Assembly (NCBI GenBank): GCA_964600125.1
Contig: CAZRIK010000001.1
Location: 5,412 to 66,622, forward strand
Direction of reading: 5' to 3'
DNA from: an uncultured Candidatus Bathyarchaeia archaeon
Lineage (GTDB): Archaea; Thermoproteota; Bathyarchaeia; Bathyarchaeales; DTEX01
Length of the DNA stretch: 61,211 nucleotides
The notes beneath the pieces are model-generated. The model saw nothing but the letters and a program-made list of their open reading frames with translations. It was not told where the DNA came from and did not search any database. The position numbers and the translations under genes were made by a program. Below are positions 1 to 59,653 of this stretch, piece by piece. Every line of letters starts with the position of its first letter. Positions within the stretch are counted from its first letter, which is position 1.

Positions 1-63
1 TTGGCTATCTTGGCTATCTTGGCTATCTTGGCTATCTTGGCTATCTTGGCTATCTTGGCTATC
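1..63. repeat. Tandem repeat, 7 x 9 bp (TTGGCTATC)
   Basis: Read directly. The unit repeats head-to-tail 7 times from base 1, so the array may continue beyond the window edge. Confidence 0.95.
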
Positions 64-202
64 TCCTGTATTTCATCCATGCTCTGTCGCCTCACCACTT
101 CACCCTCCCGTACATACAGGCCCTGTCCATACAGGCGTATATACCCATGCATATACCTTGGTCTGTATATATGTGCATGGATGTGTGCAGCCTAGGCTAT
201 GT

Positions 203-231
203 GGTCGTGTGTATATACGGTCGTGTGTATA
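203..231. repeat. Direct repeat GGTCGTGTGTATA x2 (16-bp period)
   Basis: Copies at 203-215 and 219-231. Each runs into a GTATAYAC-type palindrome. Confidence 0.85.
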
Positions 232-278
232 CATATATACCCTTGCCAAGATGCCCCACCCCATGCCTATTTTTTTTG

Positions 279-311
279 TGGATGGGCCTTGGATGGGCCT
301 TGGATGGGCCT
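279..311. repeat. Tandem repeat, 3 x 11 bp (TGGATGGGCCT)
   Basis: Three perfect head-to-tail copies at 279-289, 290-300 and 301-311. Confidence 0.95.
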
Positions 312-465
312 AGCAAGAAGCGTGCCAAGCCTAGGGGTTTTTGTGCATATTTTGTCAACATCTGTCTAAACTTTGGTCACCTCATCCCAAAAGTGTCTAA
401 AAAAAAGTGGCCGACTGGCCAGAATCATTCTCAGAATTTTGGCTATTAAAAAAAATTAATTTTTC

Positions 466-494
466 TTGACTTTTCAATTTTTTTACTGTACAAC
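466..494 (+). promoter_or_regulatory. Candidate sigma70-like early promoter
   Basis: TTGACT (466-471), 17-bp spacer, TACAAC (489-494). An A/T-rich tract lies upstream (446-465). By-eye match only. Confidence 0.3.
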
Positions 495-545
495 TTCGAA
501 GCCACCGAAAGCACTCACATTTCTCACAGTTTTGGAGTTTTCCCC

Positions 546-731
546 ATGCCCAATCCCTCCCTGAGCCGCCAGTATTTCCCCTGTTTCTTCCGAGCCAGCC
601 CCAGCCCCGAGCCCGTGGAGGTGCGCGGGAATGAGGTATTGACTGTGCAGGCCGATGCCCGTGACCAGTGTATATACCAGCGCAAGGGTGAGGCGTGTAC
701 GACGTATGAAGGATTGGAGACAGGGAAATGA
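546..731 (+). CDS. Hypothetical small protein (61 aa), uncertain
   Basis: ORF with GGAG 8 nt upstream of the ATG. It lies in a locally GC-rich stretch (about 540-720) downstream of the candidate promoter. No recognisable motif. Confidence 0.3.
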   Translation: MPNPSLSRQYFPCFFRASPSPEPVEVRGNEVLTVQADARDQCIYQRKGEACTTYEGLETGK

Positions 732-897
732 ATGGCAAGAACTTTGGTGAAGGCTTAATTGTGACGGCTTGGATATGTGGGTTGGCTGCGTCAGGTGTAG
801 TATTGTTTGCCCATTTTGTGATGAATATGCCGTGGGCGAATGTGTTCCCGTGAGCGCCCCCGTACTGCAACAAATATTTGAGAAAAGGAATAATTCG

Positions 898-1140
898 ATG
901 ACCGTATATACAGAACATGACCTGGACAATATGTATGAAGATTACCTAGATGAATGTTACGGCGATGTGCTGGTAACTGGCTACAAATTCCCAACCAGCC
1001 AAGCATTGCGTAAGCTTGACCCTGTGGCATATCGATGTGGATTTGTTGATTGGCTTGACTGTGAATTGAGTGACGAAATCATTTTTGAGTGGGCAGACGG
1101 TAGCTACCATGATGAAAAACAGGAAGAAGAGGGGCAATAA
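898..1140 (+). CDS. Hypothetical protein (80 aa; ORF open from 769)
   Basis: ATG at 898 preceded by AAAAGGAA. The in-frame upstream extension from 769 carries CxxC-x3-CxxC, so the longer form is possible. Confidence 0.6.
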   Translation: MTVYTEHDLDNMYEDYLDECYGDVLVTGYKFPTSQALRKLDPVAYRCGFVDWLDCELSDEIIFEWADGSYHDEKQEEEGQ

Positions 1141-1141
1141 C

Positions 1142-1552
1142 ATGAAAAAATTCAGAACTTTCAAAAAACATGCAAGAAGCCTAGTCGTGACGGCAGAAAA
1201 AACGACAGTACACTATGAAAAACTAGATAGGGATAGTGGTCAACGTATCAATTGGTCGGAAGAAATCGACCCGATAGCTGTTCAGATTGAACAGACAAGG
1301 GAATTTACCTTTTCTTTTCAATGCCTATACTTTGACGGGTATGAAATGAAATTGTTGGAGAACGTGAAAAAATTCAGCATTTATCCGGTGTCAAACGACC
1401 ATACTTTGAAAGAAAAGCATGGTGAGGCGTTTGATGTTTCACTTGCTAGGCAAAGTCTGATAGCAGACTTTGGCAATGAGTCCCGTCTAATGCTGGATAC
1501 CTATTACCTAAACAAGCCGATCGTCCAACGTAGAAAAAAAGAAATGGTGTAA
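1142..1552 (+). CDS. Hypothetical protein (136 aa)
   Basis: ATG at 1142, 1 nt after the upstream stop (TAA 1138-1140). The track ORF 1070-1552 contains this start. Confidence 0.7.
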   Translation: MKKFRTFKKHARSLVVTAEKTTVHYEKLDRDSGQRINWSEEIDPIAVQIEQTREFTFSFQCLYFDGYEMKLLENVKKFSIYPVSNDHTLKEKHGEAFDVSLARQSLIADFGNESRLMLDTYYLNKPIVQRRKKEMV

Positions 1553-1637
1553 ACTACAACAAACAAACAAGTACACATTTATCTTCCTGTTTTTCATTTG
1601 GTAGATGGAGAAAACAGGGGAAAAAGGAGTTAAAGTC

Positions 1638-2633
1638 ATGGTAAAGAATATCGGTGAATTACGTTTCGGGTTGGAATTAGAGTGTCAGAGAGCGTATGGG
1701 TACGACAAAAATCACAGCTTTTATGATGACGAAGATGAAGAAATAGATGAAGATGCAACGCAAGCTGCAATTGATGAGTCCTATTACTATCTATGTAATG
1801 AGAGGCTTGATTGGGGATTGCCTACAAACATGTTCAATCGTCTGTTAGTAGAATGGGGAAAAGAATATCCTGAAAGATTCCCTGAATGGTACGAAGAAAA
1901 TCCTAGATTTTCTTACAGTGAATTCAATGACGAATTTGAAGAATGTGATGCTGTGACTGATTTCCTGCAAGAAAAGGCCGCCGAACATACTGATACTGTA
2001 TATTTTGAGCGTGAGAGAATTGACTTTGACAGATGGGTATCCGACCAATTGCCTGCAAAGGTATCCAATATTTGGTCGACTGATTCTGATGCATCGGTGA
2101 GTGGATGTGAGTTTGTGCTAGATGGCGGCGGCATTCCATATGATGGAACGATTGACGCAATTGGTATCATCACTGATGTAGAATTACAGATTGATAGTAA
2201 ATGCAGTTTTCACGTTCATGTGTCAGAAGAAAACAGACGTCACAAATATGGCCCAAGGTTCCAGTACCTCATGTGTAAATACATTGCTGATCGTCTATCT
2301 TCCTGTCCCACTGGATTGTTAGATAGATGGAATACAGAATGGCGTACTAGATATTACGCCTTTGCAAAATCAGACAAACGCATGAGTTTTGTAGCATATC
2401 GCTCGGAACATGAATCATGGGAATTTCGATGCTTTGGCAACGTATCCACAAAAGAAGATATGATTTTTTGTGTAAACATGGCGCGTGATGCCTATATGTA
2501 TGCGCGCAATAAGGTAGCCAGTGGATATGCGTACAATGAAAATTCTTGGCCATTGTTAGTGTCAAATTTTGAATCACGATTGACGGCAGAGATAGCCAAG
2601 CGTGAGCGTAAACAATTAAGAAAGGCGGCATAA
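1638..2633 (+). CDS. Amidoligase (COOH-NH2 ligase, glutamine-synthetase/GCS2-like fold; Amidoligase_2-type)
   Basis: AAGGAG 7 nt upstream of the ATG at 1638. Family-typical motifs are LRFGLELECQ (N-terminal ExE), SFHVHVSEE, and SWEFRCFGN followed by a helical tail. Confidence 0.72.
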   Translation: MVKNIGELRFGLELECQRAYGYDKNHSFYDDEDEEIDEDATQAAIDESYYYLCNERLDWGLPTNMFNRLLVEWGKEYPERFPEWYEENPRFSYSEFNDEFEECDAVTDFLQEKAAEHTDTVYFERERIDFDRWVSDQLPAKVSNIWSTDSDASVSGCEFVLDGGGIPYDGTIDAIGIITDVELQIDSKCSFHVHVSEENRRHKYGPRFQYLMCKYIADRLSSCPTGLLDRWNTEWRTRYYAFAKSDKRMSFVAYRSEHESWEFRCFGNVSTKEDMIFCVNMARDAYMYARNKVASGYAYNENSWPLLVSNFESRLTAEIAKRERKQLRKAA

Positions 2634-2634
2634 T

Positions 2635-2994
2635 ATGCGTGATGAATCTGTGAAAATAACGTTAATTACAAAAAAAATAAAGCCGAGAGTACGGTCTGCA
2701 GCTACAACAAAAACATATCAAGTTCGGGTAAATCTTACTGGTGAAACGTGGGAAAAGTTGGACAAATTGGCTGAATTTGCTGAGATACGCACAGGACAAA
2801 AGTTACTAGAGGTCCGTGTGAAAAATTGGATAGATGCAGGATGCCCATTGTCTGAAGAAATAACAAAGAAACGTACAAATAGGGAGCATCGTGCGTTGGT
2901 GTTTTCAGTCAACCAACGTGAGGCGTTGAAGGAATTCTTGCTTGACAATGATATGTTTGTACAGGATTTGATGCAAAACTTTGCTGAAATTTGA
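2635..2994 (+). CDS. Hypothetical protein (119 aa) between the amidoligase and the GATase
   Basis: ORF starts 2 nt after the amidoligase stop. Its stop lies in the GACAGGAAAATAA motif that precedes the next gene. Confidence 0.7.
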   Translation: MRDESVKITLITKKIKPRVRSAATTKTYQVRVNLTGETWEKLDKLAEFAEIRTGQKLLEVRVKNWIDAGCPLSEEITKKRTNREHRALVFSVNQREALKEFLLDNDMFVQDLMQNFAEI

Positions 2995-3009
2995 GACAGG
3001 AAAATAAAT

Positions 3010-3738
3010 ATGTGTACAATTATGACGGTCGACAGAGACACATTTGAAGCAAATAAGACAGAATATCTCTCACGGATTGCGGCAGATGAATTAGGTAATC
3101 CACACGGCATTGCAATCATGATGTATTCGTACAAGCATGGCATGATAAAACTAGAGGCAAATGCGTTTCAGGCTGGTTTACTTTCCTGTGACTGGGATAG
3201 AGTTTGGTTGCATTGTCGGTATGGTACGACAGAAACAGACGGCATATATGGATGCCATAACTTTGCCAGCGGTGATGGTTGGTATATACAGCACAATGGT
3301 ATGGTACGTTGTGGTGACGGGTTGCCCGTGGATAGTATGGCGATTGCCCAATTAGTTAAGCTGTTAGGCCCACAAGATGCCCTGAAATCGCTTGAAAGAA
3401 CAGGAGAAACATACGCCAACACGTTCATTGTGAATGAGTATGGCGAGTATTATGTAGGTCGACTCACGTCTGGCACCCTATTCACAGACGGCAAAGGGAA
3501 CTATTCAAGCAAGCAAGTAGCTACCATTGTTTCCCCTGTCGCAACGAATAGCATTGCAGAATATACGACAGTGAATCATTCAAAACTACCCGAAAAGATA
3601 TTGACTGTGGCAGTAAAATTGGCAGAAAAAGGCATATTCCATACGTCTGAATGCAATGAAAAGACCCGTAAAAAACTCCAAGCAAACTTCAGTGAACTTG
3701 AGCTTGAACGTCTGAATGACTACCTTGCTGGCTTCTGA
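3010..3738 (+). CDS. Class-II (Ntn-type) glutamine amidotransferase-like protein
   Basis: Starts with Met-Cys (MCTIM...), the N-terminal nucleophile position. LHCRYGTTETDGIYGCHNF...WYIQHNGMV matches the GATase-II pattern R-x-x-T-x-G...hPF...HNG. Confidence 0.7.
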   Translation: MCTIMTVDRDTFEANKTEYLSRIAADELGNPHGIAIMMYSYKHGMIKLEANAFQAGLLSCDWDRVWLHCRYGTTETDGIYGCHNFASGDGWYIQHNGMVRCGDGLPVDSMAIAQLVKLLGPQDALKSLERTGETYANTFIVNEYGEYYVGRLTSGTLFTDGKGNYSSKQVATIVSPVATNSIAEYTTVNHSKLPEKILTVAVKLAEKGIFHTSECNEKTRKKLQANFSELELERLNDYLAGF

Positions 3739-3832
3739 CCTGCTACAACAAAATTTTGACCCTTTTTCGTGTACAAATTTGTACTTCTGATGTAAAGTGC
3801 AAATATCCGATAGCTAGAAAAACAGGGGAAAT

Positions 3833-4828
3833 ATGAGCAATCCACCGCTGAACGTAAGAATTGATTGGGCATACCTACTGGCGGATATTTGTATCCGGTA
3901 CGACCAAGAGGTTGCCGTGTTGCTACCTTCAAGGGCAAGCCTGATACGTTTCTTGCACGATCCCCAATATGCTGTGGATGTTCTAAAAGCGACAAATAGG
4001 CAGATCCTTTGGGCGTGTGTTTGTCATGATATTTGGAATTACTTGAAAATACCCTTTTCTACCCTGAACAAATGGCGTGTTGGAGGACACAACCAGACGG
4101 AACTAGACAGTTTTGAATCGCTTTATTGTTATGACCAGAAACCCATCAAAAGAGGCGGGAAGATATATGAAAAAGATTGCATTGATCCAAGCTGGATCGT
4201 TTCAAATATTCAACAGTGTAAAAGCTTTTCTGATGTTGCATGGATACTCGACAGAAAAAGGAAAGATATCGACAGAATTTCGGAAAGCATTCCGAGAGTT
4301 CAATTGTGTGGAGTCCCAAGCGGTATGCAGCAGCAGGGCACAGTTGGAGTACCTGAGCCAATCGGCGCTCTTTACAGGGAAAAACTTGGCAAGAAACTGC
4401 CTACAAGAATGGGATCTTTTGAGCAGTGTATCGGGTTCATCAAGCAGACCTTCAGACAGATAGATTACCATGCTGACCCAGTAGACAGGCCCGTGGTCAA
4501 GGAAAACAGGGGAAAAATAGTCCCTACTGATATTGCCATGCGTGACGTGAACACCTACTGGGAACGTGCCCCATTCAAGCTGGGTTTTGTGACAGAGAAT
4601 ACTGCGTTTGCAAAGACCTTCGACAAGATTGGCAAGAAGCCATTTATTATGTTGGCACACGCATTATCTGTAAGTAGGCGAGCACAGGCAATCATTTATC
4701 TTCCTGTTTCAAATATCTGGTTCAGTGATATTCACTTTTCTACGTTCATATTTTTCTTAAATTATACCCCAACTGATGCGGAAAAAAAGTGCCTACTACA
4801 ACGTGGTTTTTTGTATAAGAAAGAGTGA
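3833..4828 (+). CDS. Hypothetical protein (331 aa)
   Basis: ACAGGGGAA motif RBS at 3822-3830, ATG at 3833. The C-terminal ~55 aa look low-complexity but no stop occurs earlier. Confidence 0.65.
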   Translation: MSNPPLNVRIDWAYLLADICIRYDQEVAVLLPSRASLIRFLHDPQYAVDVLKATNRQILWACVCHDIWNYLKIPFSTLNKWRVGGHNQTELDSFESLYCYDQKPIKRGGKIYEKDCIDPSWIVSNIQQCKSFSDVAWILDRKRKDIDRISESIPRVQLCGVPSGMQQQGTVGVPEPIGALYREKLGKKLPTRMGSFEQCIGFIKQTFRQIDYHADPVDRPVVKENRGKIVPTDIAMRDVNTYWERAPFKLGFVTENTAFAKTFDKIGKKPFIMLAHALSVSRRAQAIIYLPVSNIWFSDIHFSTFIFFLNYTPTDAEKKCLLQRGFLYKKE

Positions 4829-5193
4829 TTATGTATGTATTTTTCAGAAACAATAGCTTCAACCCATGGGAGTTCCTTGGGTATCAAAAAGAAACGACCA
4901 CAAAGAACAACCTTGTGGAAGCTTTCAACGGTTATTATTGGTGGCCGAAACAATCAATCGTTACAAAATGCACTATTCACACAATATATATGATAATAAA
5001 GACGCATACAGGTAAAGAGTTCGTGGCCATATCCCATCGTGACCTAATCGTGCTGAAACAAATAGGTGCATACATGCCCATTGATTCATTAGGTTTCTAC
5101 ATCAACACAAACAGGGGAAAAATATGGTCAAGAAGCTCGGTAGAATTAAAAGACCTACGTTATGCGAAAATAGACGACAGCTTAGAGGAGTAG
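4825..5193 (+). CDS. Hypothetical protein (122 aa)
   Basis: ATGA-type overlap with the upstream stop. AAGAGTGA lies upstream of the ATG. Confidence 0.5.
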   Translation: MIMYVFFRNNSFNPWEFLGYQKETTTKNNLVEAFNGYYWWPKQSIVTKCTIHTIYMIIKTHTGKEFVAISHRDLIVLKQIGAYMPIDSLGFYINTNRGKIWSRSSVELKDLRYAKIDDSLEE

Positions 5194-5312
5194 TTTTCTA
5201 TGACAAGACAGGTTGGATTTATCCCGATTTGCAGGATGTGGCAAAAGTTAGCCTACTCTCGAAGGATGCGGGCAATGTTCTTTCTAGCGGCAAAAAGATC
5301 ACCGACAATTGA
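5124..5312 (+). CDS. Hypothetical protein (62 aa), overlaps the 3' end of the previous ORF
   Basis: ACAGGGGAAAAAT motif lies directly upstream of the ATG at 5124. The sequence looks protein-like, but the 70-nt overlap with 4825-5193 leaves one of the two in doubt. Confidence 0.35.
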   Translation: MVKKLGRIKRPTLCENRRQLRGVVFYDKTGWIYPDLQDVAKVSLLSKDAGNVLSSGKKITDN

Positions 5313-7100: not shown

Positions 7101-7607
7101 ATGAAAACACCACAGAGCATATATGACAGAATTAAAGTAACAAACAATTTGAAAATGTTAAACAACTTCTTCTATCTCGTGAATGCAGACATAGTGGCGA
7201 GGCAAGAGGCAGATAGTTTGAATGAACACATCCTCAAACTCAAGAACGACTTAAACGAACAAGAATTTGGCCCTGTCTTAAAAGAGCATGAGGAATTGAT
7301 AGTATCCTTGGAGAAGAAAATACAAAACATCCTCTCCCAAAAACCAGAAAGATTCCTTGGCGTATTTACTGACAAGAAAGGAGCCATAATTGTACAAGAG
7401 CAAGAAGAAGCTTGGAAGTTCGGCCCCATTGTGTATATGTCTTCACCTAAACCAATCACTTTTGAAGACTTGATGACACGTCCAAAATTTCCTCCTGATT
7501 TTGACAAGACAGTTTACGAATTGAAACAAGTGGAGATACTCTTAAATCCTGGTAAAATAGCCACACTCGTACACATATATGAAGAGAAAGGGAGTACAGA
7601 CGTATGA
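7101..7607 (+). CDS. Hypothetical protein (168 aa)
   Basis: Clean ORF whose stop overlaps the dUTPase start. Confidence 0.7.
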   Translation: MKTPQSIYDRIKVTNNLKMLNNFFYLVNADIVARQEADSLNEHILKLKNDLNEQEFGPVLKEHEELIVSLEKKIQNILSQKPERFLGVFTDKKGAIIVQEQEEAWKFGPIVYMSSPKPITFEDLMTRPKFPPDFDKTVYELKQVEILLNPGKIATLVHIYEEKGSTDV

Positions 7608-8008
7608 AACTAAACCAAATAGTCACCTACGCAACCAAAGGCAGTGCTGGCTTTGATATTGTCGCAGACGAAACCATTGTCATCAAACAAAGACATACTG
7701 CGAAAATCAAGACCACTCTTCGTATTGTTTCTGCAGAACAGGGAGAATATGTGTCCATACTCCCAAGGTCTAGCCTTTCTTCCAAGGGTATCCTTGCAGT
7801 GGATGGGACAATTGATGGGGATTATGAAGGGCTTTGGTCGGTGGTAATCCTCAACACAACAGGGGATATATACAAGATTCACGCTGGTGATCGAATTGCA
7901 CAAGGGATTTTGAGGAGGTTCAACTACATCGAAGGTGCACATGTGGCTGATCGTATTCGGGGTCAAGGCGCATTTGGTAGCACTGACCAAGTGAAACAGG
8001 AGAAATAA
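7604..8008 (+). CDS. dut: dUTP pyrophosphatase (trimeric dUTPase)
   Basis: All five dUTPase motifs are present: GSAGFDI, PRSSLSSKG, GTIDGDYEG, GDRIAQ and RGQGAFGST. Confidence 0.92.
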   Translation: MKLNQIVTYATKGSAGFDIVADETIVIKQRHTAKIKTTLRIVSAEQGEYVSILPRSSLSSKGILAVDGTIDGDYEGLWSVVILNTTGDIYKIHAGDRIAQGILRRFNYIEGAHVADRIRGQGAFGSTDQVKQEK

Positions 8009-9309: not shown

Positions 9310-10275
9310 TTATCCTCCTGTTTCTTCAGAGCTATGGATATTTGAGACAGGAGAATAAGAGACTCCCATGCCATACCCACGCAAGGTTTCAGGATACATA
9401 TTTGCACGGCTGGTGGCAAACTCATAGGAGTAATTCTCACACCCATCCATCTCACCACAAATTGTCTGAAACGGACAATATTTACAACCATCCCATGCAG
9501 GCGTACCAAAGATATCCACCCATGTAGGTCGTACTGGCATCATTTCTTGAGCTACCCACGACTCATCCATCAGTTCCATACCTTTGTGGAAGCCTGATTC
9601 AGTGATGATTGTCTTGACGCCATCACAATAAAGGTCATCACCTACCAATTCCAACTCCATAACATTTATGCCTGGTTCAAATGCAAGCTTTTGTTTGGTC
9701 TTGAAATCGTAGTTACTGAACCATACGGGCAGCCCATAAAGTACACTACCAATCTTTGTCTTGTGGTAAATCATTTGAGTGAGGCACTGCAACACAGCCC
9801 CAAGCTTTGGCTTACTCTGGTGAAATGCTGCACTGGCAGTATTAAAAGATTGTACGGATTTCATTTCTACGGGATATATTTTCCCTGTCGCATGGTTGGT
9901 AACATACAAGTCAGGTCGTGCAGTAAGCCCTATACCACCTGCTACAACAGGAGGAAAAATAGCCTGAGCTTGTTCTTCTTCTGTCCAAGTAATATTTACA
10001 TCAGACTTAACCAACATCTGCTTGATCACTTCCTCAAGTGCTCTACCAGTTGCCCAAGACACAAGTGATTTGATGGTTGGACGTTCTTGGATACCAAGTG
10101 CACGAAAGGCAGATGTGCGAGGACAGTGTGAGGAATCATCAGCAATGAACACACTATTTTTAATAGAAAATTGAGTAACGTTCGCACCACGAAAGGCAAG
10201 TAGTTCAGGTTGAGGGTCAAATTCCCCTACCATCTTTTCCACACCAGACAGGAGAATTAGATCTAAATCTTTCAT
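9310..10275 (-). CDS. PD-(D/E)XK nuclease, Cas4/RecB-like with Fe-S cysteines
   Basis: N-terminal Cys (DSSHCPR), D...EMK core (RPDLYV...VEMKSVQ), and C-terminal CKYCPFQTIC cluster. This matches the Cas4/DUF2800-type phage exonuclease architecture. Confidence 0.8.
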   Translation of the reverse strand: MKDLDLILLSGVEKMVGEFDPQPELLAFRGANVTQFSIKNSVFIADDSSHCPRTSAFRALGIQERPTIKSLVSWATGRALEEVIKQMLVKSDVNITWTEEEQAQAIFPPVVAGGIGLTARPDLYVTNHATGKIYPVEMKSVQSFNTASAAFHQSKPKLGAVLQCLTQMIYHKTKIGSVLYGLPVWFSNYDFKTKQKLAFEPGINVMELELVGDDLYCDGVKTIITESGFHKGMELMDESWVAQEMMPVRPTWVDIFGTPAWDGCKYCPFQTICGEMDGCENYSYEFATSRANMYPETLRGYGMGVSYSPVSNIHSSEETGG

Positions 10276-13535: not shown

Positions 13536-13709
13536 ATGAAATTCTACGTAGCTCTCTGGGTACTAGACATATCACCCACAGGAACAGTAATCGAATCTCC
13601 TATAGCTGCTTTGGAAAAAACAGACCTAGGAATCGAAATATATACAAAAACCACTAAACAATACTTGAGCGATTTACTCACATCAGAAGGATGGGAACCA
13701 ACCAAATGA
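13536..13709 (+). CDS. Small hypothetical protein (57 aa, below the ORF-track cutoff)
   Basis: Hand-translated as MKFYVALWVLDISPTGTV...SEGWEPTK. The stop forms an ATGA overlap with the ATG at 13706. Confidence 0.4.
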   Translation: MKFYVALWVLDISPTGTVIESPIAALEKTDLGIEIYTKTTKQYLSDLLTSEGWEPTK

Positions 13710-14431
13710 CTGTCGAATTTATCACCGAACCATCAGTACGACTCATTAGCCTTACTTCTCCTGTTTCCTTCAATCCAAAGGTAAAGACAGCAGAAGACTT
13801 GATCACCTACTGTGCACGTGTCTCCTCACCTGATCGTGATGAGCACAAAGACCCAAGCAAGCTCCTTGAATACTGCGTGAAGCACAAGCACTGGAGCATC
13901 TTTGAACAGGCGAGTATGACAATGGAAATTACCTGTCCGTTGTTTGTGGCGACACAAATACTTCGTCACAGATCACATGTTTTTCAGATGCTGAGCCAGA
14001 GATATACTAACGCACCTAACAAATGTTTCCTCATAAATCACCGTATCGCACATCCAACCAATCGCCAACTCTCTGTTGAAACAGGGGAAATAGAGTCCAC
14101 TATCCTTTGGGAGAGTATGCAAAAACTATCCATAAACATCGCCTTCCAACAATACCACCAAGCTCTTGACGCTGGTGTTGCCAGAGAAGTGGCTCGCTCT
14201 ATTCTTCCTGTCTCCACAGCCACGACCCTGATGATGACTGGTAATGTACGCTCTTGGATTCACTTTCTGGAGGCCCGCTTATATGAAGGTGCACAGAAAG
14301 AAATCCGTGATGTAGCTGAGAAAGTACAGGAAATATTCATAGAAAACTTCCCAACTGTTTCAACAGCTCTGGGCTGGTACTTGACATCCAAAACCGACAC
14401 CGATAAAGTGGCCGAGTCACCAAACGACTAA
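13706..14431 (+). CDS. thyX: Flavin-dependent thymidylate synthase ThyX
   Basis: ThyX signature RHRSHVFQMLSQRY (RHRxxSxxxxSxR). Start chosen at the ATG at 13706 (ATGA coupling); the track ORF opens at 13691. Confidence 0.9.
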   Translation: MTVEFITEPSVRLISLTSPVSFNPKVKTAEDLITYCARVSSPDRDEHKDPSKLLEYCVKHKHWSIFEQASMTMEITCPLFVATQILRHRSHVFQMLSQRYTNAPNKCFLINHRIAHPTNRQLSVETGEIESTILWESMQKLSINIAFQQYHQALDAGVAREVARSILPVSTATTLMMTGNVRSWIHFLEARLYEGAQKEIRDVAEKVQEIFIENFPTVSTALGWYLTSKTDTDKVAESPND

Positions 14432-22143: not shown

Positions 22144-22833
22144 GTGCAATATTTATCCATACGAGACACCGAAACTGCCGTATCCTTGATGACCTTACCT
22201 GAGAAGCTCGAAGTCATGAAAAAACACCCTCGAAAGATACTCATCAATTTTCTAGGTGGTTCTTGTTGCGGTAAATCAACTGTGGCGGCAAAACTCTACG
22301 CTTATCTGAAACAAAAAGAAATCCAGTCATACCTGATTCAGGAGTATGTCACTCGATTTTGGGTAAACGAAGGTCGTGATGTGGGCCAATACGACCAACT
22401 ACTTTTTGCTGCTACTGTTGCCCGTGAGGAATACACATGCACACAGAAGTACCAAGTTTGTGTGAACGATTCTCCTGCACTACTGTGTCTTTTGTATGCG
22501 CATTTACGCCAAAAAGAAAATGCAGACATGCTAGAAACACGCTCTATTACTGTGATGTTGAAAAATCACTGGGAGTATATGCGACAGAAAGAAATCACCA
22601 CACTCAACTACATATTGCCATTTAATCCCCTGTTGTTCAGTGCAGAAAATAGGTACGAAAAAGATGTTGTAGCTGTGCAAAATGTATCCGATTCCTTGCG
22701 ATTGCTCCTACGTGACCTAGAGAGAGAAGGACAAGCACATTTCTTGAAGCGTACCTTCATTGACGTAACTGACAGCATGGAAGACATTTTCGACAACATT
22801 ATCTCCAGTCTTTTGTGGGAACAGAGCCAATGA
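22144..22833 (+). CDS. P-loop NTPase / nucleotide-kinase-like protein
   Basis: Walker A FLGGSCCGKSTV near the N-terminus. About 230 aa, a kinase-like size. Specificity unknown. Confidence 0.6.
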   Translation: MQYLSIRDTETAVSLMTLPEKLEVMKKHPRKILINFLGGSCCGKSTVAAKLYAYLKQKEIQSYLIQEYVTRFWVNEGRDVGQYDQLLFAATVAREEYTCTQKYQVCVNDSPALLCLLYAHLRQKENADMLETRSITVMLKNHWEYMRQKEITTLNYILPFNPLLFSAENRYEKDVVAVQNVSDSLRLLLRDLEREGQAHFLKRTFIDVTDSMEDIFDNIISSLLWEQSQ

Positions 22834-23528: not shown

Positions 23529-26500
23529 TTCTTCTTACCCTTTGGCTGGATGCCCTTGTTGTATGCGTCCCTTACATCTGCAGGAAGAGCTTCAGGAACT
23601 AATACAGGGGCAGTCATTTTATCCCTAATTCGCTTATCTTCAATTTCTTTGTATCTTGCTTTCAGTTCTTTATTCGAATCTACGCTAATAATACCTAATT
23701 TTTGCAGTCCATCAACAACTTCGCCCATAGTTTGTAAACGTGAGCCCACACCATCAGGTAAATCGCTGTAAGTTAGCCCGTTATTTTCTAGGATATTTCG
23801 TACAGTATTTGGGTTAGTTTTTTCATCACCTTGTCTACCGTTTGCAGCAAGAACATCCAAGTAAGAATAAGTCTTCAATTCTTCCTCGTATGCGTCCATA
23901 GCTGCATGGAACATTTGCGGTCTTACTGTCACCCAAGCAAGCATGTTGAGTGGATTTCCCTTATACAAACCTTCCCATAATTCATTGTACAGACTCAAAT
24001 GATGCGCAGTCATAGCCTCATGAATTTTGTCCCATTTTTCGCTTGCTTTCTCTGGAGCTTTTTCAGAGAGTTCTGCAAATTCAGCAAATCCTTCAGGGTC
24101 AAAACTTGCCATGTGATCTTTTATTTCTTTTTGTATTTGAGCTTCTATCGTAGAATCTTTCAAGCTTTTCATCTGTTCAGTAAGGTTTTGTGCTGCTTGA
24201 GCGTGGTACTCTTTCATACCAATTTTCAGCAATTCAAGTATTTTTCCTACGATTTCCACAGAACTACCGACACCAAGAATAGCTCTTCCAGGCGCAGTAC
24301 CTAAATCAAGTCCAGAATGACTCTTGAACATCTCTCCAAGATCTGTTGAAAGCACGCCAAAAGGAGAATAAGAACTCATATCTAATCCTCCTGTCACACC
24401 ATGTCGAGCGACATTTTTCAAGAGGTGTTTCAGCATACCTTCTTCAGATATGGGAGTCTCTGCTCCAAATAATTCTTCACCACCTAAGTCAGACAATCCA
24501 TTTTGCAACAGGGGAAATAAGGCCATAGTTGCGCCCATACCAAACAACACTTTCAACGCATGTGGGTGTAGTTCATTAGGCATTACCGCAAGACCTTCTT
24601 TTGGAAATACCCCTTCTAATGCTCTACTCACACCGCCAGAAGTAGCGTTAAATAAGCGCATCCACATCATAGTTTTCGCAGTGGCAAACATTGTTGCGCC
24701 TGGAAGGAATCTTCTCCAAGATTGAATAAAAGGAGATGCGGTAATTGGGCCGAACATACCTATAGTGGAGTCAATATACTGAGTAATAAATGGGGCGGTG
24801 ATATCCTTACCAGCCTTGGCTTGAGCATACCACTGAGCAGCACTTGCAGTGGTAATTCCTTTGTTTTTCGAGTTGAGGAATTGAATTGCCTCTAACTCAG
24901 GCCCATTGTGTACTTTATCTAAAAATTCTCGGTAAAGTGTGAGTCCTTTTTGTGCTTGCCCAGTGGTCATGGAAAGTTCAATATTTTCTTTTCCGTATAT
25001 ATTTACCTTATCGTTGAACCATTTTATAGCCTGTTCTGCTTTTTGAGTAACAACGTGATGACCTTCTTCTGCAAAAGTACCATTTCGTGCACGAATGAAG
25101 CCTTCTTTTGCTTGGTTGCGCATACGAGAGTCGATATATTGCTCAACAACACTACTAACAATCTTATTGTCTGCTGCGTTTATTCCAAATGCTGCAGTCC
25201 TATCAACTCCACTGTGAATGCTTCTTACAAATACCTTTGCTATGTCAAATGAGTCTGCATACAACCTAGCAGATAAGTATGATTGGAAGACGTTTTTTAT
25301 CATACTTTTTGGCGTAGAGAGCGTGTTCAATGGCATGTATGCTAATTGCCCTGTTGCATTTAGTAAGTTGTGTACAGAAATCATCACACTATGGGTGATG
25401 GGGTTGTTTGCATTTAGGCCAATACTACCAACAATCTCTCGCATCAAGTCCAGTGCATTTGGGTCAAAGTTTGCGCTCTCAATCACATTGTCTACGAGAT
25501 TTTTCTCATAAGCAAAACCCATCTGATTCAACAAAGTACCATGATTTATCAAATACTGTTGGTGTAATCCTGTGGCACCCTTAGTGATGTTCTTTTGAGA
25601 CAGGGAGATAATAGCTTCAGCAGGTGATTTTAGCTCTGATATCTCAAATCCGTAAGTCTTACCCAACTGGCCTTCTCTAGAAGAGCCATGAAATTTAGAT
25701 GAACTTATTGGGTCTCTATCCCAGTTTCTAATGTTCTGGAAAATGTTCACGTTGTGGTCTTTTGGCTTCATCTCCACATATGTGTAATCAACTCTCCTGT
25801 CATGCCATGGTAAATCTGTATCATAAATGCTTGAGTATTTTCTACTGTTGTCGAAATTCAGTCTTTCACCCAACAAGTCAGAGGCTCTAATTGTGTTGTA
25901 ATAGTCAAGAGCCAGTTTAAAAGCTTGTTTGAAATGGTCTTCAGGTAGTTCAGGAATCTCAATATCGTTTAGATGCTTTTTCACGATTATTTCAGCCAGT
26001 TTCTCAGTAGTCTCTACACCATCTACAGGTTTAAAGTTGACTCCAGAATTACTTATCTGATTGTGCGTATGAATGATACGCTGATCCACATCCAAATCCG
26101 ACAGGGATTGTACAAACTCATGGTCTGTTAATATGCTGCGGGAAATCTCGCCCACCTGTGTGAGGTATGCTTTGTTTGTTTTCTTGTTCACTTCTACATA
26201 AGTCGTGTCTAATTCATGTGCAATTAGTCTGTTTGTGGAGTTGTTAAAATCTTGACTGTTCAAGTAAGTATATTTTTTGAATACTTTTGCTAGATTTTCA
26301 TTATAAAACTTATCCGTAACTGCCTGCGCAATTCTCTTACCGATGTTCAATAAGTTATACGCTGAGCCTTTTATCGCAAGAAGTGTCTTATTTTCTACAC
26401 GTTTTTGTGAGTGTTCTGGCCCCTCAAGTAGAGACATAAGCTTCGTAAATACAGTAGGATCTTTTCTCAATGCTTTTGAAAATTCCCTCACATCATTGTG

Positions 26501-56924: not shown

Positions 56925-57120
56925 GGACTGCACAGACCATACACTATCTCAACAAACAACCCAAGTCAAAATAATTTCTCAGGACCAGGCTCTAAAGAAC
57001 CTGGCTTGAAACCTGAGAAATCTTAATACTATCTAAAAGATTACTATCTTTCAAAGTATTGTTAAGGCTGTTTTGCCAGCCTTTTTTCGCTATATTTCTA
57101 GCGGCGTTCAGGTCACGATC
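56925..57120 (-). ncRNA. Candidate TnpB guide (omega/reRNA) region; boundaries approximate
   Basis: In characterised TnpB systems the guide RNA overlaps the 3' end of tnpB and the right end. Here there is a nested hairpin, TTTCTCAGG...[CCAGG-ttctttagag-CCTGG]...CCTGAGAAA (56975-57020). No RNA evidence. Confidence 0.35.
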
Positions 57121-58235
57121 TAACGTGAAGCCACAAGAAATACAGTCAAAAACTCTATTAGAAAGCTTAAGACCTTCCTTAATCAACTCGCAATTACTGC
57201 ATGTTTTAGAGGTATAAGCTTCATTAATTTCTTCAAAATACCTACCAGCACTTTCAGCCAAGTATGATATTTTACACTTGAGATTTCCGATTGCGATGTC
57301 GGAGGCACATCTTGCCAATCTTCCTGATATCAACCATTTGGGAGACACATTCCCGACAAAAATATATTCGCTTGTCTTGACTATTTTCGTGGCGAGCTTC
57401 CAGTTATAGTCTTGCCTTCTCCTTGCTATTTTCCGATGAACGAAAGGCAATGCTTTCCTGTCTTTGTTGGAGGCATTCTTCAATGACAGCAAGTTTTTGT
57501 CGTCTAGAAACTTCTTCCGCTCAGGCTGAACGACAAAAGACCCTTCGATGTTTGAAGCATTTATCGTATGTTTCAAGCCAAGATCTATTCCTAGAATCTT
57601 ATTTGTAGCTGCGGGATAGGATACTTTTTTGATGTTGTTTGTTATGATACAAGCCCAGTAGTCTCCGCATGTGTCGCATTTTATCGAAACTTGTTTGATC
57701 GTTCCTTCGATTGTTCTAGAATCGCCGGTTCCTCTTACCTTCCCAATTCCAGGGATATTGAGAGAGATCTTGTTGCCAAATTGCTTGACCGGCTGGTTTG
57801 TTTTATGCGCAGAATAAGAGAAACTACTTCCTTTTATCTTCTCCGTTTTAAATCTTGGCCTTCCAAGTCTTTTCCCTTTCTTATCCCAAAACTTATATCT
57901 TTCCGCAGCCTTGTGGGCTCTAGCGCACATGTTTTGAGAAATCCAGGCTGGCAAGCTGCTTGTTTTATAAAGCATGTTTATGGAAAACTCTGGAACTAGA
58001 GTGTCCTGCGAAAGCAAGATTTCAAGAGATGTGTTGAAAATATCTATACTTTCAAATATGTAGTTATCAACTTGCTGTTTTTGATTTTTGTTCAAGTTGA
58101 GCTTTACTTTGAAAGACTGCATTAACATCTCCTTTCCTCTAGGTTATATGCCTTTTCTTCTTGTTTCAAGACCTATCGAATTCTGAGAGAAAATTCATCC
58201 TGGAGCTAAAGCACCAGGTCTTCTTTTCTAAGATA
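56940..58235 (-). mobile_element. IS200/IS605-family, tnpB-only element (ends approximate)
   Basis: tnpB is flanked on the same strand by similar subterminal hairpins, CCTGG-tgctttagct-CCAGG (58199-58218) and CCAGG-ttctttagag-CCTGG (56985-57004). No tnpA. Inserted between the terminators of two convergent genes. Confidence 0.6.
56992..58128 (-). CDS. tnpB: TnpB (IS605 OrfB-type RNA-guided nuclease)
   Basis: RuvC I ILGIDLGLKH, RuvC II EEINEAYTSKTCSNC, zinc finger CSNC...(15)...CISCG, RuvC III LDRDLNAARNIAKKG. 378 aa. Confidence 0.9.
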   Translation of the reverse strand: MLMQSFKVKLNLNKNQKQQVDNYIFESIDIFNTSLEILLSQDTLVPEFSINMLYKTSSLPAWISQNMCARAHKAAERYKFWDKKGKRLGRPRFKTEKIKGSSFSYSAHKTNQPVKQFGNKISLNIPGIGKVRGTGDSRTIEGTIKQVSIKCDTCGDYWACIITNNIKKVSYPAATNKILGIDLGLKHTINASNIEGSFVVQPERKKFLDDKNLLSLKNASNKDRKALPFVHRKIARRRQDYNWKLATKIVKTSEYIFVGNVSPKWLISGRLARCASDIAIGNLKCKISYLAESAGRYFEEINEAYTSKTCSNCELIKEGLKLSNRVFDCISCGFTLDRDLNAARNIAKKGWQNSLNNTLKDSNLLDSIKISQVSSQVL

Positions 58236-59636: not shown

Positions 59637-59653
59637 ACCTATTTCTCCTGTAT

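Follow-up and report, generated by a model that had tools for sequence, protein, structure and literature searches.

The association of an amidoligase with a class-II glutamine amidotransferase (GAT-II) in phages goes back to Iyer et al. 2009, which PMC10580990 and PMC11318856 cite; the suggestions that they quote from it are cell-wall modification for superinfection exclusion and secondary-metabolite synthesis. Cassettes of this type are annotated in many phages, among them LUZ24-like Pseudomonas phages (used in therapy studies), and also in OM43 and Pseudoalteromonas phages, in mycobacteriophages and in crAss-like phages. A literature search found no experimentally assigned function or substrate for phage amidoligase/GAT-II pairs, in agreement with the initial annotation of the locus considered here, which had noted the co-occurrence of the two genes in phages and the lack of an assigned substrate. 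This locus lies near the start of a 61,211-nt stretch of DNA (contig CAZRIK010000001.1, positions 5,412 to 66,622; hereafter, the window) and contains a gene for a putative amidoligase (AL), a short middle gene, and a gene for a putative GAT-II protein (GAT). It is a highly divergent, minimal form of the known phage association, and its conserved unit is the AL-GAT pair.

The cassette of the LUZ24/tf/PaP3/phiEco32 type comprises an Amidoligase_2 protein (gp18) and a GAT-II protein (gp19), together with a COOH-NH2 ligase of type 2, a RimK-like ATP-grasp protein and a gamma-glutamyl cyclotransferase (GGCT). As in LUZ24 and tf, the window carries in its early arm a same-strand pair, in which a predicted amidoligase of the glutamine synthetase (GS) fold stands directly upstream (the middle gene aside) of a class-II amidotransferase with an N-terminal Cys. 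The motif series GFEVELE/GFELE, DGS..G.E, CS.H.H and EFR is also common to both, the GAT profile detects gp19 and tf_22, and the terminase large subunit (TerL) of the window is distantly related to a group that includes phages infecting the host of tf, P. putida PpG1. Unlike the LUZ24/tf cassette, the window has the two enzymes only, without the ATP-grasp protein, GGCT or the type-2 ligase; its GAT is 242 aa long instead of 510-530 aa and lacks the Cys-rich C-terminal half; and in its AL an insert of ~115 aa separates the E-x-E strand from the DGS motif. The similarity between the two systems is seen only from profile to profile (AL, E=1.5e-4; GAT, E=2e-5), and the Pfam and PHROGs models miss both window proteins.

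The two proteins and their predicted folds

The locus is laid out as follows, with the evidence for each feature in brackets (ORF, open reading frame; pN and pS, nonsynonymous and synonymous divergence; L001, a JGI contig that is the nearest relative of the window):

1625..1630, + strand: Shine-Dalgarno sequence AAGGAG of the AL gene, 7 nt before the ATG at 1638 (sequence reading)
1638..2633 (alternative start 1605), + strand: AL gene, 331 aa (ORF call, Shine-Dalgarno sequence, length of the closest homolog)
2635..2994, + strand: middle gene, 119 aa (ORF call, pN/pS against L001)
3010..3738, + strand: GAT gene, 242 aa (ORF call, profile, structure model)

The three ORFs were found on the + strand as the initial annotation had placed them, and they are indeed tightly coupled: the junction between AL and the middle gene reads TAAtATG, with a gap of 1 nt, and 15 nt separate the middle gene from GAT. 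The start of AL is placed at 1638 rather than at 1605, since AAGGAG lies 7 nt upstream and the closest homolog, in L001, is likewise 331 aa long. The same layout is found in L001 (331, 119, 240 and at least 319 aa), the last of these genes being the next one downstream. In the comparison of the window with L001, pN (~0.2-0.3) was well below pS (~0.5-0.8) for AL, the 119-aa gene, GAT and this downstream gene, indicating that all four are coding and under purifying selection. The motifs from which the two enzymes had originally been recognized are present in the sequence, namely G11-L-E-L-E15, F191-H-V-H-V195 and W261-E-F-R264 in AL, and M1-C2, R70..T73 and H95-N-G97 in GAT. Their key residues are conserved across homologs, and the motifs are thus family signatures rather than chance occurrences.

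The Pfam check that had been proposed for the three proteins returned no match for AL, the 119-aa protein or GAT when each was searched as a single sequence, and single-sequence searches of PHROGs, NCBIfam and PADLOC gave no match either. The family calls for AL and GAT therefore required profiles and structure models. Searches of GenBank phages with megablast and tblastn found no relative of the region, of AL or of GAT.

AL is predicted to be a GS-fold carboxylate-amine ligase of a divergent sister clade of Pfam Amidoligase_2, outside the threshold of that model. This call is based on an AlphaFold2 (AF2) model, fold searches and a profile-profile match, and membership in Amidoligase_2 holds at the superfamily level only. 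The original assignment of the ORF to Amidoligase_2 was thus borne out as regards a GS-fold amidoligase, and not as regards the curated family. The AF2 model, built from 87 sequences, has a pLDDT (predicted local distance difference test) of 90.3. Its 50 best fold matches in the PDB are without exception GS I/II/III, YbdK/GCS2 or 1tt4 (probability up to 1.00, best E 8.3e-4), and 37 matches at E<=1e-3 were obtained from the viral structure library BFVD, the named ones being nearly all phage 'Amidoligase enzyme'. The BFVD match at rank 2 is A0A6J5KPZ7_1, an 840-aa uncultured-phage protein whose annotation includes a cytidine/deoxycytidylate deaminase domain. It is possibly a fusion of an amidoligase with a deaminase, which would hint at nucleotide substrates for some members of the family.

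At the profile level, hhalign matched AL to tf_21/LUZ24 gp18, annotated as Amidoligase_2, over 130 columns (E=1.5e-4, with a probability of only 51%), and DGS..G.E, CS.H.H and EFR were in register. The negative control, AL against the COOH-NH2_lig type 2 phage ligase family, gave 0.2%. The PF12224 Amidoligase_2 hidden Markov model (HMM) itself, with its gathering threshold, gave no match to the window AL even at E<=1. Weak matches to Amidoligase_2 were found for 3 of 9 and for 6 of 104 members of the AL clade (best E 0.001-0.002), none of the 104 lying above threshold, and this was the only Pfam family that recurred among those 104. Precomputed Pfam tags were absent from all 88 AL database homologs, and sequence-profile searches of the PDB with AL alignments of 9 and 150 sequences gave chance matches only. 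An exhaustive profile search with AL revealed a sharply bounded clade of 392 cluster representatives at E<=1e-3, 296 of them at <=1e-30. The homologs form a metagenome-only clade in which none is named and the longest contigs are mostly 40-75 kb, and the family is restricted to phage-like contigs.

Residues E13, E15, E158, H192, H194, R230, E262 and R264 of AL are invariant or at least 90% conserved (87-150 sequences), and D151 is also invariant or nearly so among homologs. The proposed catalytic series is E13-x-E15, D151, E158, H192-x-H194, R230 and E262-x-R264, which, judged from the order of the residues and from established knowledge of the fold, would correspond to the metal and ATP ligands of GS-fold enzymes. 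AL thereby resembles glutamine synthetase and YbdK (GCS2) in its predicted fold and in the order of the metal/ATP-binding residues (E-x-E, E, H-x-H, R, E-x-R), but TM-scores to these enzymes are only 0.3-0.36 and identity is ~10-15%. Unlike GS, AL is a minimal core, without the N-terminal domain or the oligomerisation elements of GS. An acidic helical insert of AL at about residues 30-145 is lineage-specific. Long AL homologs have N-terminal extensions of several unrelated kinds, for which there was neither a Pfam match nor any similarity to GAT or window genes.

GAT is predicted to be a stand-alone class-II (N-terminal nucleophile, Ntn) glutamine or gamma-glutamyl amidohydrolase/amidotransferase with intact catalytic residues; the N-terminal Cys, fold, profile and catalytic residues all agree with the class originally proposed for this ORF. 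A profile of eight GAT homologs retrieved from the PDB the class-II amidotransferase-domain protein 3mdn (E=7.6e-5), followed by GlmS, EgtC and PurF. R70, N96 and G97 of GAT align with R73, N98 and G99 of GlmS, and D108 sits in a V-D-S motif, as in EgtC. The AF2 model of GAT is of moderate confidence (pLDDT 72.6). Class-II GAT domains make up the whole of its top 18 PDB matches (GlmS, EgtC, AsnB, 3mdn and PurF; probability 0.99-1.00, E down to 2.9e-6), beyond which the probability drops to 0.04, and other Ntn hydrolases (penicillin acylases, for example) do not exceed 0.06.

C2, R70, N96, G97 and D108 are invariant in all 18 GAT-like copies, each of which has the Cys directly after the start codon (M/V-C). 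Cys2 is predicted to act as the nucleophile after removal of Met, R70 and D108 to occupy the positions of the ligands to the alpha-carboxylate and alpha-amino groups of glutamine, and N96-G97 to form the oxyanion hole. The hhalign match between GAT and LUZ24 gp19/tf_22 (E=2e-5) is paralleled by the GAT family HMM, which detects those genes at ~5e-6. Among the curated GATase models (Pfam GATase_2/4/6/7), none matched the window GAT, and one of eight members reached GATase_6 (E=0.0027). GAT thus appears like EgtC and the glutaminase domain of GlmS in its Ntn class-II fold, its size of ~230-240 aa and its conserved Cys1, Arg, Asn-Gly oxyanion pair and Asp of V/T-D-S, and like EgtC in standing alone. 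It differs from both in identity (12-17%), in its Amidoligase_2-like partner, which takes the place of EgtA/EgtB or a sugar isomerase domain, and in its variable helical C-terminal tail (~195-242).

A two-gene unit across phage-like loci

Loci were scanned with HMMs of the AL and GAT families, and both genes were used as seeds for the look-up, yielding 14 independent loci. GAT directly follows AL in 13 of them (the window, L001-L005, L007, L010-L014 and L016), independently of the seed. The lone exception, L015, is a 2.7-kb fragment that has a GAT-like gene and no visible AL. Scans of metagenomes with the GAT profile gave no confirmed locus in IMG/VR and one in JGI. The pair has been duplicated in tandem as AL-GAT-AL-GAT in L002 (3050-7890) and L013 (3-2958), L007 (4564-9015) reads AL-GAT-AL-AL, and AL fragments follow the pair in L014 (1078-3590). 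BLAST of the early proteins of the window against all loci found no gene besides AL and GAT that is common beyond L001, and the neighbours of the pair are otherwise unrelated from locus to locus.

The initial annotation had described a three-gene cassette. The conserved unit is instead a pair, not a trio, since only AL and GAT are kept together and the 119-aa gene is confined to the window and L001. This middle gene is real, with 55% identity of its product to that of L001 1238-1597 (pN 0.29 against pS 0.72), and is a lineage-specific insertion between AL and GAT that lies outside the conserved module. No homolog of it was found in loci beyond L001; it is absent from L002, and an unrelated 83-aa ORF takes its place in L003. 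The 119-aa protein gave no significant PDB profile match, and ribosomal S15, which came up at E ~1, was rejected as a chance match. The gene that follows GAT was likewise considered as a third component and rejected, its conservation being limited to L001 and its product having no match in the family libraries:

3833-4828, + strand: downstream gene, 331 aa, 67% identical to L001 2443-3399

In the window the pair belongs to the first + strand genes of the early arm, and in L010 and L012 it comes just after a strand switch and a gap of 370-470 nt. A gamma-glutamylamine cyclotransferase gene (GGACT, identified by Pfam) adjoins the GAT-like gene in two cases, a parallel to GGCT in LUZ24/tf, and GGACT was not found in the window or in the other loci:

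L015 930-1295: GGACT, adjoining the GAT-like gene
L016 1851-2219 (= L017 1120-1488): GGACT, adjoining the GAT-like gene

Genome context and the repeated word

The window is a phage with convergent arms, and the relevant features are as follows:

to ~23.2 kb, + strand: early/replication arm, with ThyX, dUTPase, PolA, helicases, a primase domain and HNH
7604-8008, + strand: dUTPase
13691-14431, + strand: ThyX (phrog_85, 3e-60)
22144-22833, + strand: P-loop protein, thymidylate-kinase-like (phrog_2107, AAA_28)
late arm, - strand: P22/SU10-type portal, TerL, a CHAP domain and very large virion proteins

TerL is ~26% identical to its counterparts in Vibrio VPp1-like, Ralstonia and Pseudomonas phages, the tally of whose hosts includes P. 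putida PpG1, and related reads come from lake-water and sediment metagenomes. The carrier of the window is a freshwater phage. ThyX, dUTPase and the thymidylate-kinase-like protein make up what appears from their sequences to be an ordinary route of dTTP supply. A Pfam scan of 57 window proteins found no aGPT-Pplase, ThyA-like dUMP hydroxymethylase, TET/JBP, radical S-adenosylmethionine or pyridoxal-phosphate enzyme. The components that define a thymidine-hypermodification cluster in Lee et al. 2018/2021 (5-hydroxymethyldeoxyuridine supply, 5-HMUDK and aGPT-Pplase) were not found among these 57 proteins, of which the sole P-loop kinase-like protein matches thymidylate kinase/AAA_28. Nothing thus ties the AL-GAT pair to DNA modification in the window genome, and the link to nucleic-acid or nucleotide modification, flagged as speculation when it was first put forward, is not supported.

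That proposal had also drawn on a strongly over-represented DNA word. The word, ACAGGRGAA, occurs in 59 copies against 1.2 expected, on both strands (for example at 1614-1622, 3822-3830, 24508-24516 and 59643-59651), and has the extended consensus gaRACAGGRGAAwtA. About 20 copies (~1/3) lie 2-10 nt before gene starts, in the manner of a Shine-Dalgarno sequence, and ~2/3 lie inside genes on either strand; a role merely as ribosome-binding site was therefore rejected as the full explanation. A similar density was observed only in L001, and the other 12 lineages of the clade hold 1 copy in total (L014). As it occurs at density only in the window and L001, the word is a lineage trait unconnected to the AL-GAT pair. 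It may mark a site of nicking, of binding or of modification.

Some further features of the window were noted. A perfect 9-nt tandem repeat, TTGGCTATC (x7.1, window 1-64), and an 11-nt repeat, TGGATGGGCCT (x3, window 279-311), lie upstream of the early operon in a region of ~1 kb without convincing genes. A 321-aa protein encoded on the opposite strand within the early arm (9310-10275, - strand) showed a weak PHROG match to 'CRISPR/Cas system associated' (E=3.9e-5) and no Pfam match. Inside the late arm, a 378-aa TnpB-like protein (56992-58128, - strand) matched the Pfam families Cas12f1-like_TNB (72.6 bits, cut-off 26.3) and OrfB_IS605 (30.5 bits, cut-off 30.5).

Proposed chemistry of the AL-GAT pair

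What could such a pair of enzymes do? Tentatively, AL and GAT are proposed to constitute a two-enzyme module that forms amide bonds, by glutamine-dependent amidation or by amide ligation, which for two genes so constantly linked is the simplest chemistry that is complete in itself. Two proteins must suffice for its function, since no third gene is conserved alongside them. The chemistry most likely uses ATP and glutamine on a substrate other than DNA, and it is probably gamma-glutamyl chemistry. By analogy with other GS-fold enzymes, AL would phosphorylate a carboxylate with ATP, and the acyl-phosphate so formed would then be attacked by a nitrogen nucleophile. GAT, as a predicted N-terminal-cysteine hydrolase, would bind L-glutamine or a gamma-glutamyl moiety and cleave its gamma-amide. 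The ammonia freed from glutamine by GAT would be handed over to AL and placed on the activated carboxylate, so that the overall reaction would read R-COOH + ATP + Gln -> R-CONH2 + ADP + Pi + Glu. In loci with more than one AL per GAT, the paralogs may have different carboxylates as substrates or add one unit after another; the AL-GAT-AL-GAT and AL-GAT-AL-AL layouts fit either a common nitrogen donor for several ligases or ligations in succession, which PMC4431377 discusses for linked ligases. The module would be expressed from the early arm and would modify its target early in infection. The substrate is probably a host or universal molecule, and probably not one specific to a DNA pathway; small metabolites, carboxylates on proteins and precursors of the cell envelope are examples. 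A comparable division of labour is found in the MurT/GatD peptidoglycan amidation complex (PMC3267633), in which a separate glutaminase subunit and an ATP-dependent ligase-type subunit amidate a carboxylate. Its target, the cell wall, is a candidate target class here too, as suggested for phage amidoligases; however, the folds are unrelated, as MurT/GatD combines a Mur-ligase with a class-I triad GATase instead of a GS-fold ligase with a class-II Ntn GATase, and the likeness is an analogy only.

Several points weigh against amidation by transferred ammonia from an early-expressed module. A promoter/terminator scan of window positions 1-5200 found no enrichment over shuffles. Class-II amidotransferases that transfer ammonia are normally fused to their synthase, and stand-alone members of the class, such as EgtC and YafJ-like proteins, are amidohydrolases. 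EgtC and 3mdn are among the best matches of GAT by both profile and fold. Moreover, a gamma-glutamylamine cyclotransferase gene is found with the pair in L015, L016 and LUZ24/tf, and this partner points to gamma-glutamyl-amine intermediates over simple ammonia transfer. The main rival, a possibility that is nonetheless somewhat doubtful, is that AL, as GS, PuuA and gamma-glutamylcysteine ligases do, links an amine of a metabolite, peptide or protein to glutamate through the gamma-carboxylate of the latter, and that an EgtC-like GAT later removes or remodels the gamma-glutamyl group, with GGACT acting likewise in some relatives. It is consistent with the stand-alone state of GAT, as in the known amidohydrolases of its class, and with the match of EgtC to the GAT model, which is as good as that of GlmS, and its presence among the profile hits; but ligation followed by hydrolysis would be a futile cycle with two phage proteins, unless host enzymes act between them. 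It counts for this scheme that the gamma-carboxylate of glutamate is what most characterised GS-fold ligases activate; three ligases with one hydrolase, as in L007, are not obviously explained by the scheme. The cyclotransferases argue both ways: GGACT adjoins a GAT-like gene in L015 and L016/L017, and GGCT is found with an ATP-grasp ligase in the LUZ24/tf cassette, but the window and most loci are without GGACT.

Hypermodification of DNA or nucleotides, with the pair amidating a base substituent in the phage DNA or in DNA precursors, or attaching amino acids to it, is highly unlikely. In viral contigs, Pfam amidoligase and amidotransferase genes are indeed reported to occur together with those for 5-HMUDK and aGPT-Pplase (Lee et al. 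2021, PMC8989533), but the defining enzymes aGPT-Pplase, ThyA-like hydroxymethylase and TET/JBP were not detected among the 57 scanned window proteins, and ThyX, dUTPase and the thymidylate-kinase-like protein indicate ordinary dTTP synthesis. The deaminase domain annotated on the rank 2 BFVD match counts in favour of this reading; against it, the pair turns up in loci whose replication and nucleotide genes are not related to one another. The 59-copy word might be taken as a further sign of modified DNA, but it is practically missing from the clade outside the window and L001. Least probable of all is a role as auxiliary metabolic genes (AMGs) that boost host nitrogen or amino-acid metabolism, through the synthesis of glutamine, glutamate or glutathione-like compounds. 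Such a role was proposed for a set of amidoligase, GAT, GGCT and glutathione synthase in a Planctomycetes-associated phage (PMC10945688), and the genes are listed among the AMGs of OM43 phages (PMC10580990), although these proposals were based on annotation rather than on assays. Typical AMGs resemble host genes, whereas AL and GAT are not close to housekeeping enzymes (Pfam threshold matches for 0 of 104 AL members and none for GAT). The family is confined to phage-like contigs, and a conflict or takeover function would fit better with its position in the early arm and its multiplied paralogs.

The amide-forming module proposed for AL and GAT has a minimal functional unit that is now defined, the ATP-grasp protein, GGCT and the extra ligase of the larger cassettes being dispensable. 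The strict two-gene core persists in a large, unannotated, metagenome-only clade, both of whose genes are missed by the Pfam and PHROGs models; the AL and GAT sequences are usable for new family models, and the pair is a simple one for co-expression, activity assays and metabolomics. For the window genome, a tempting link to DNA hypermodification is removed as unsupported. A more speculative reading, itself rather unlikely, is that AL-GAT is a self-sufficient system of early host takeover or counter-defence, with one particular host molecule as the target of covalent amidation or gamma-glutamylation. The target might be a precursor of the cell envelope, a protein, or a cofactor or signalling metabolite that bears a carboxylate, and an arms race over substrates would then account for the paralog expansions. 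If this reading is true, the clade of ~390 clusters, being a minimal two-gene form, would offer the simplest setting for identifying the substrate of the phage amidoligase cassettes.

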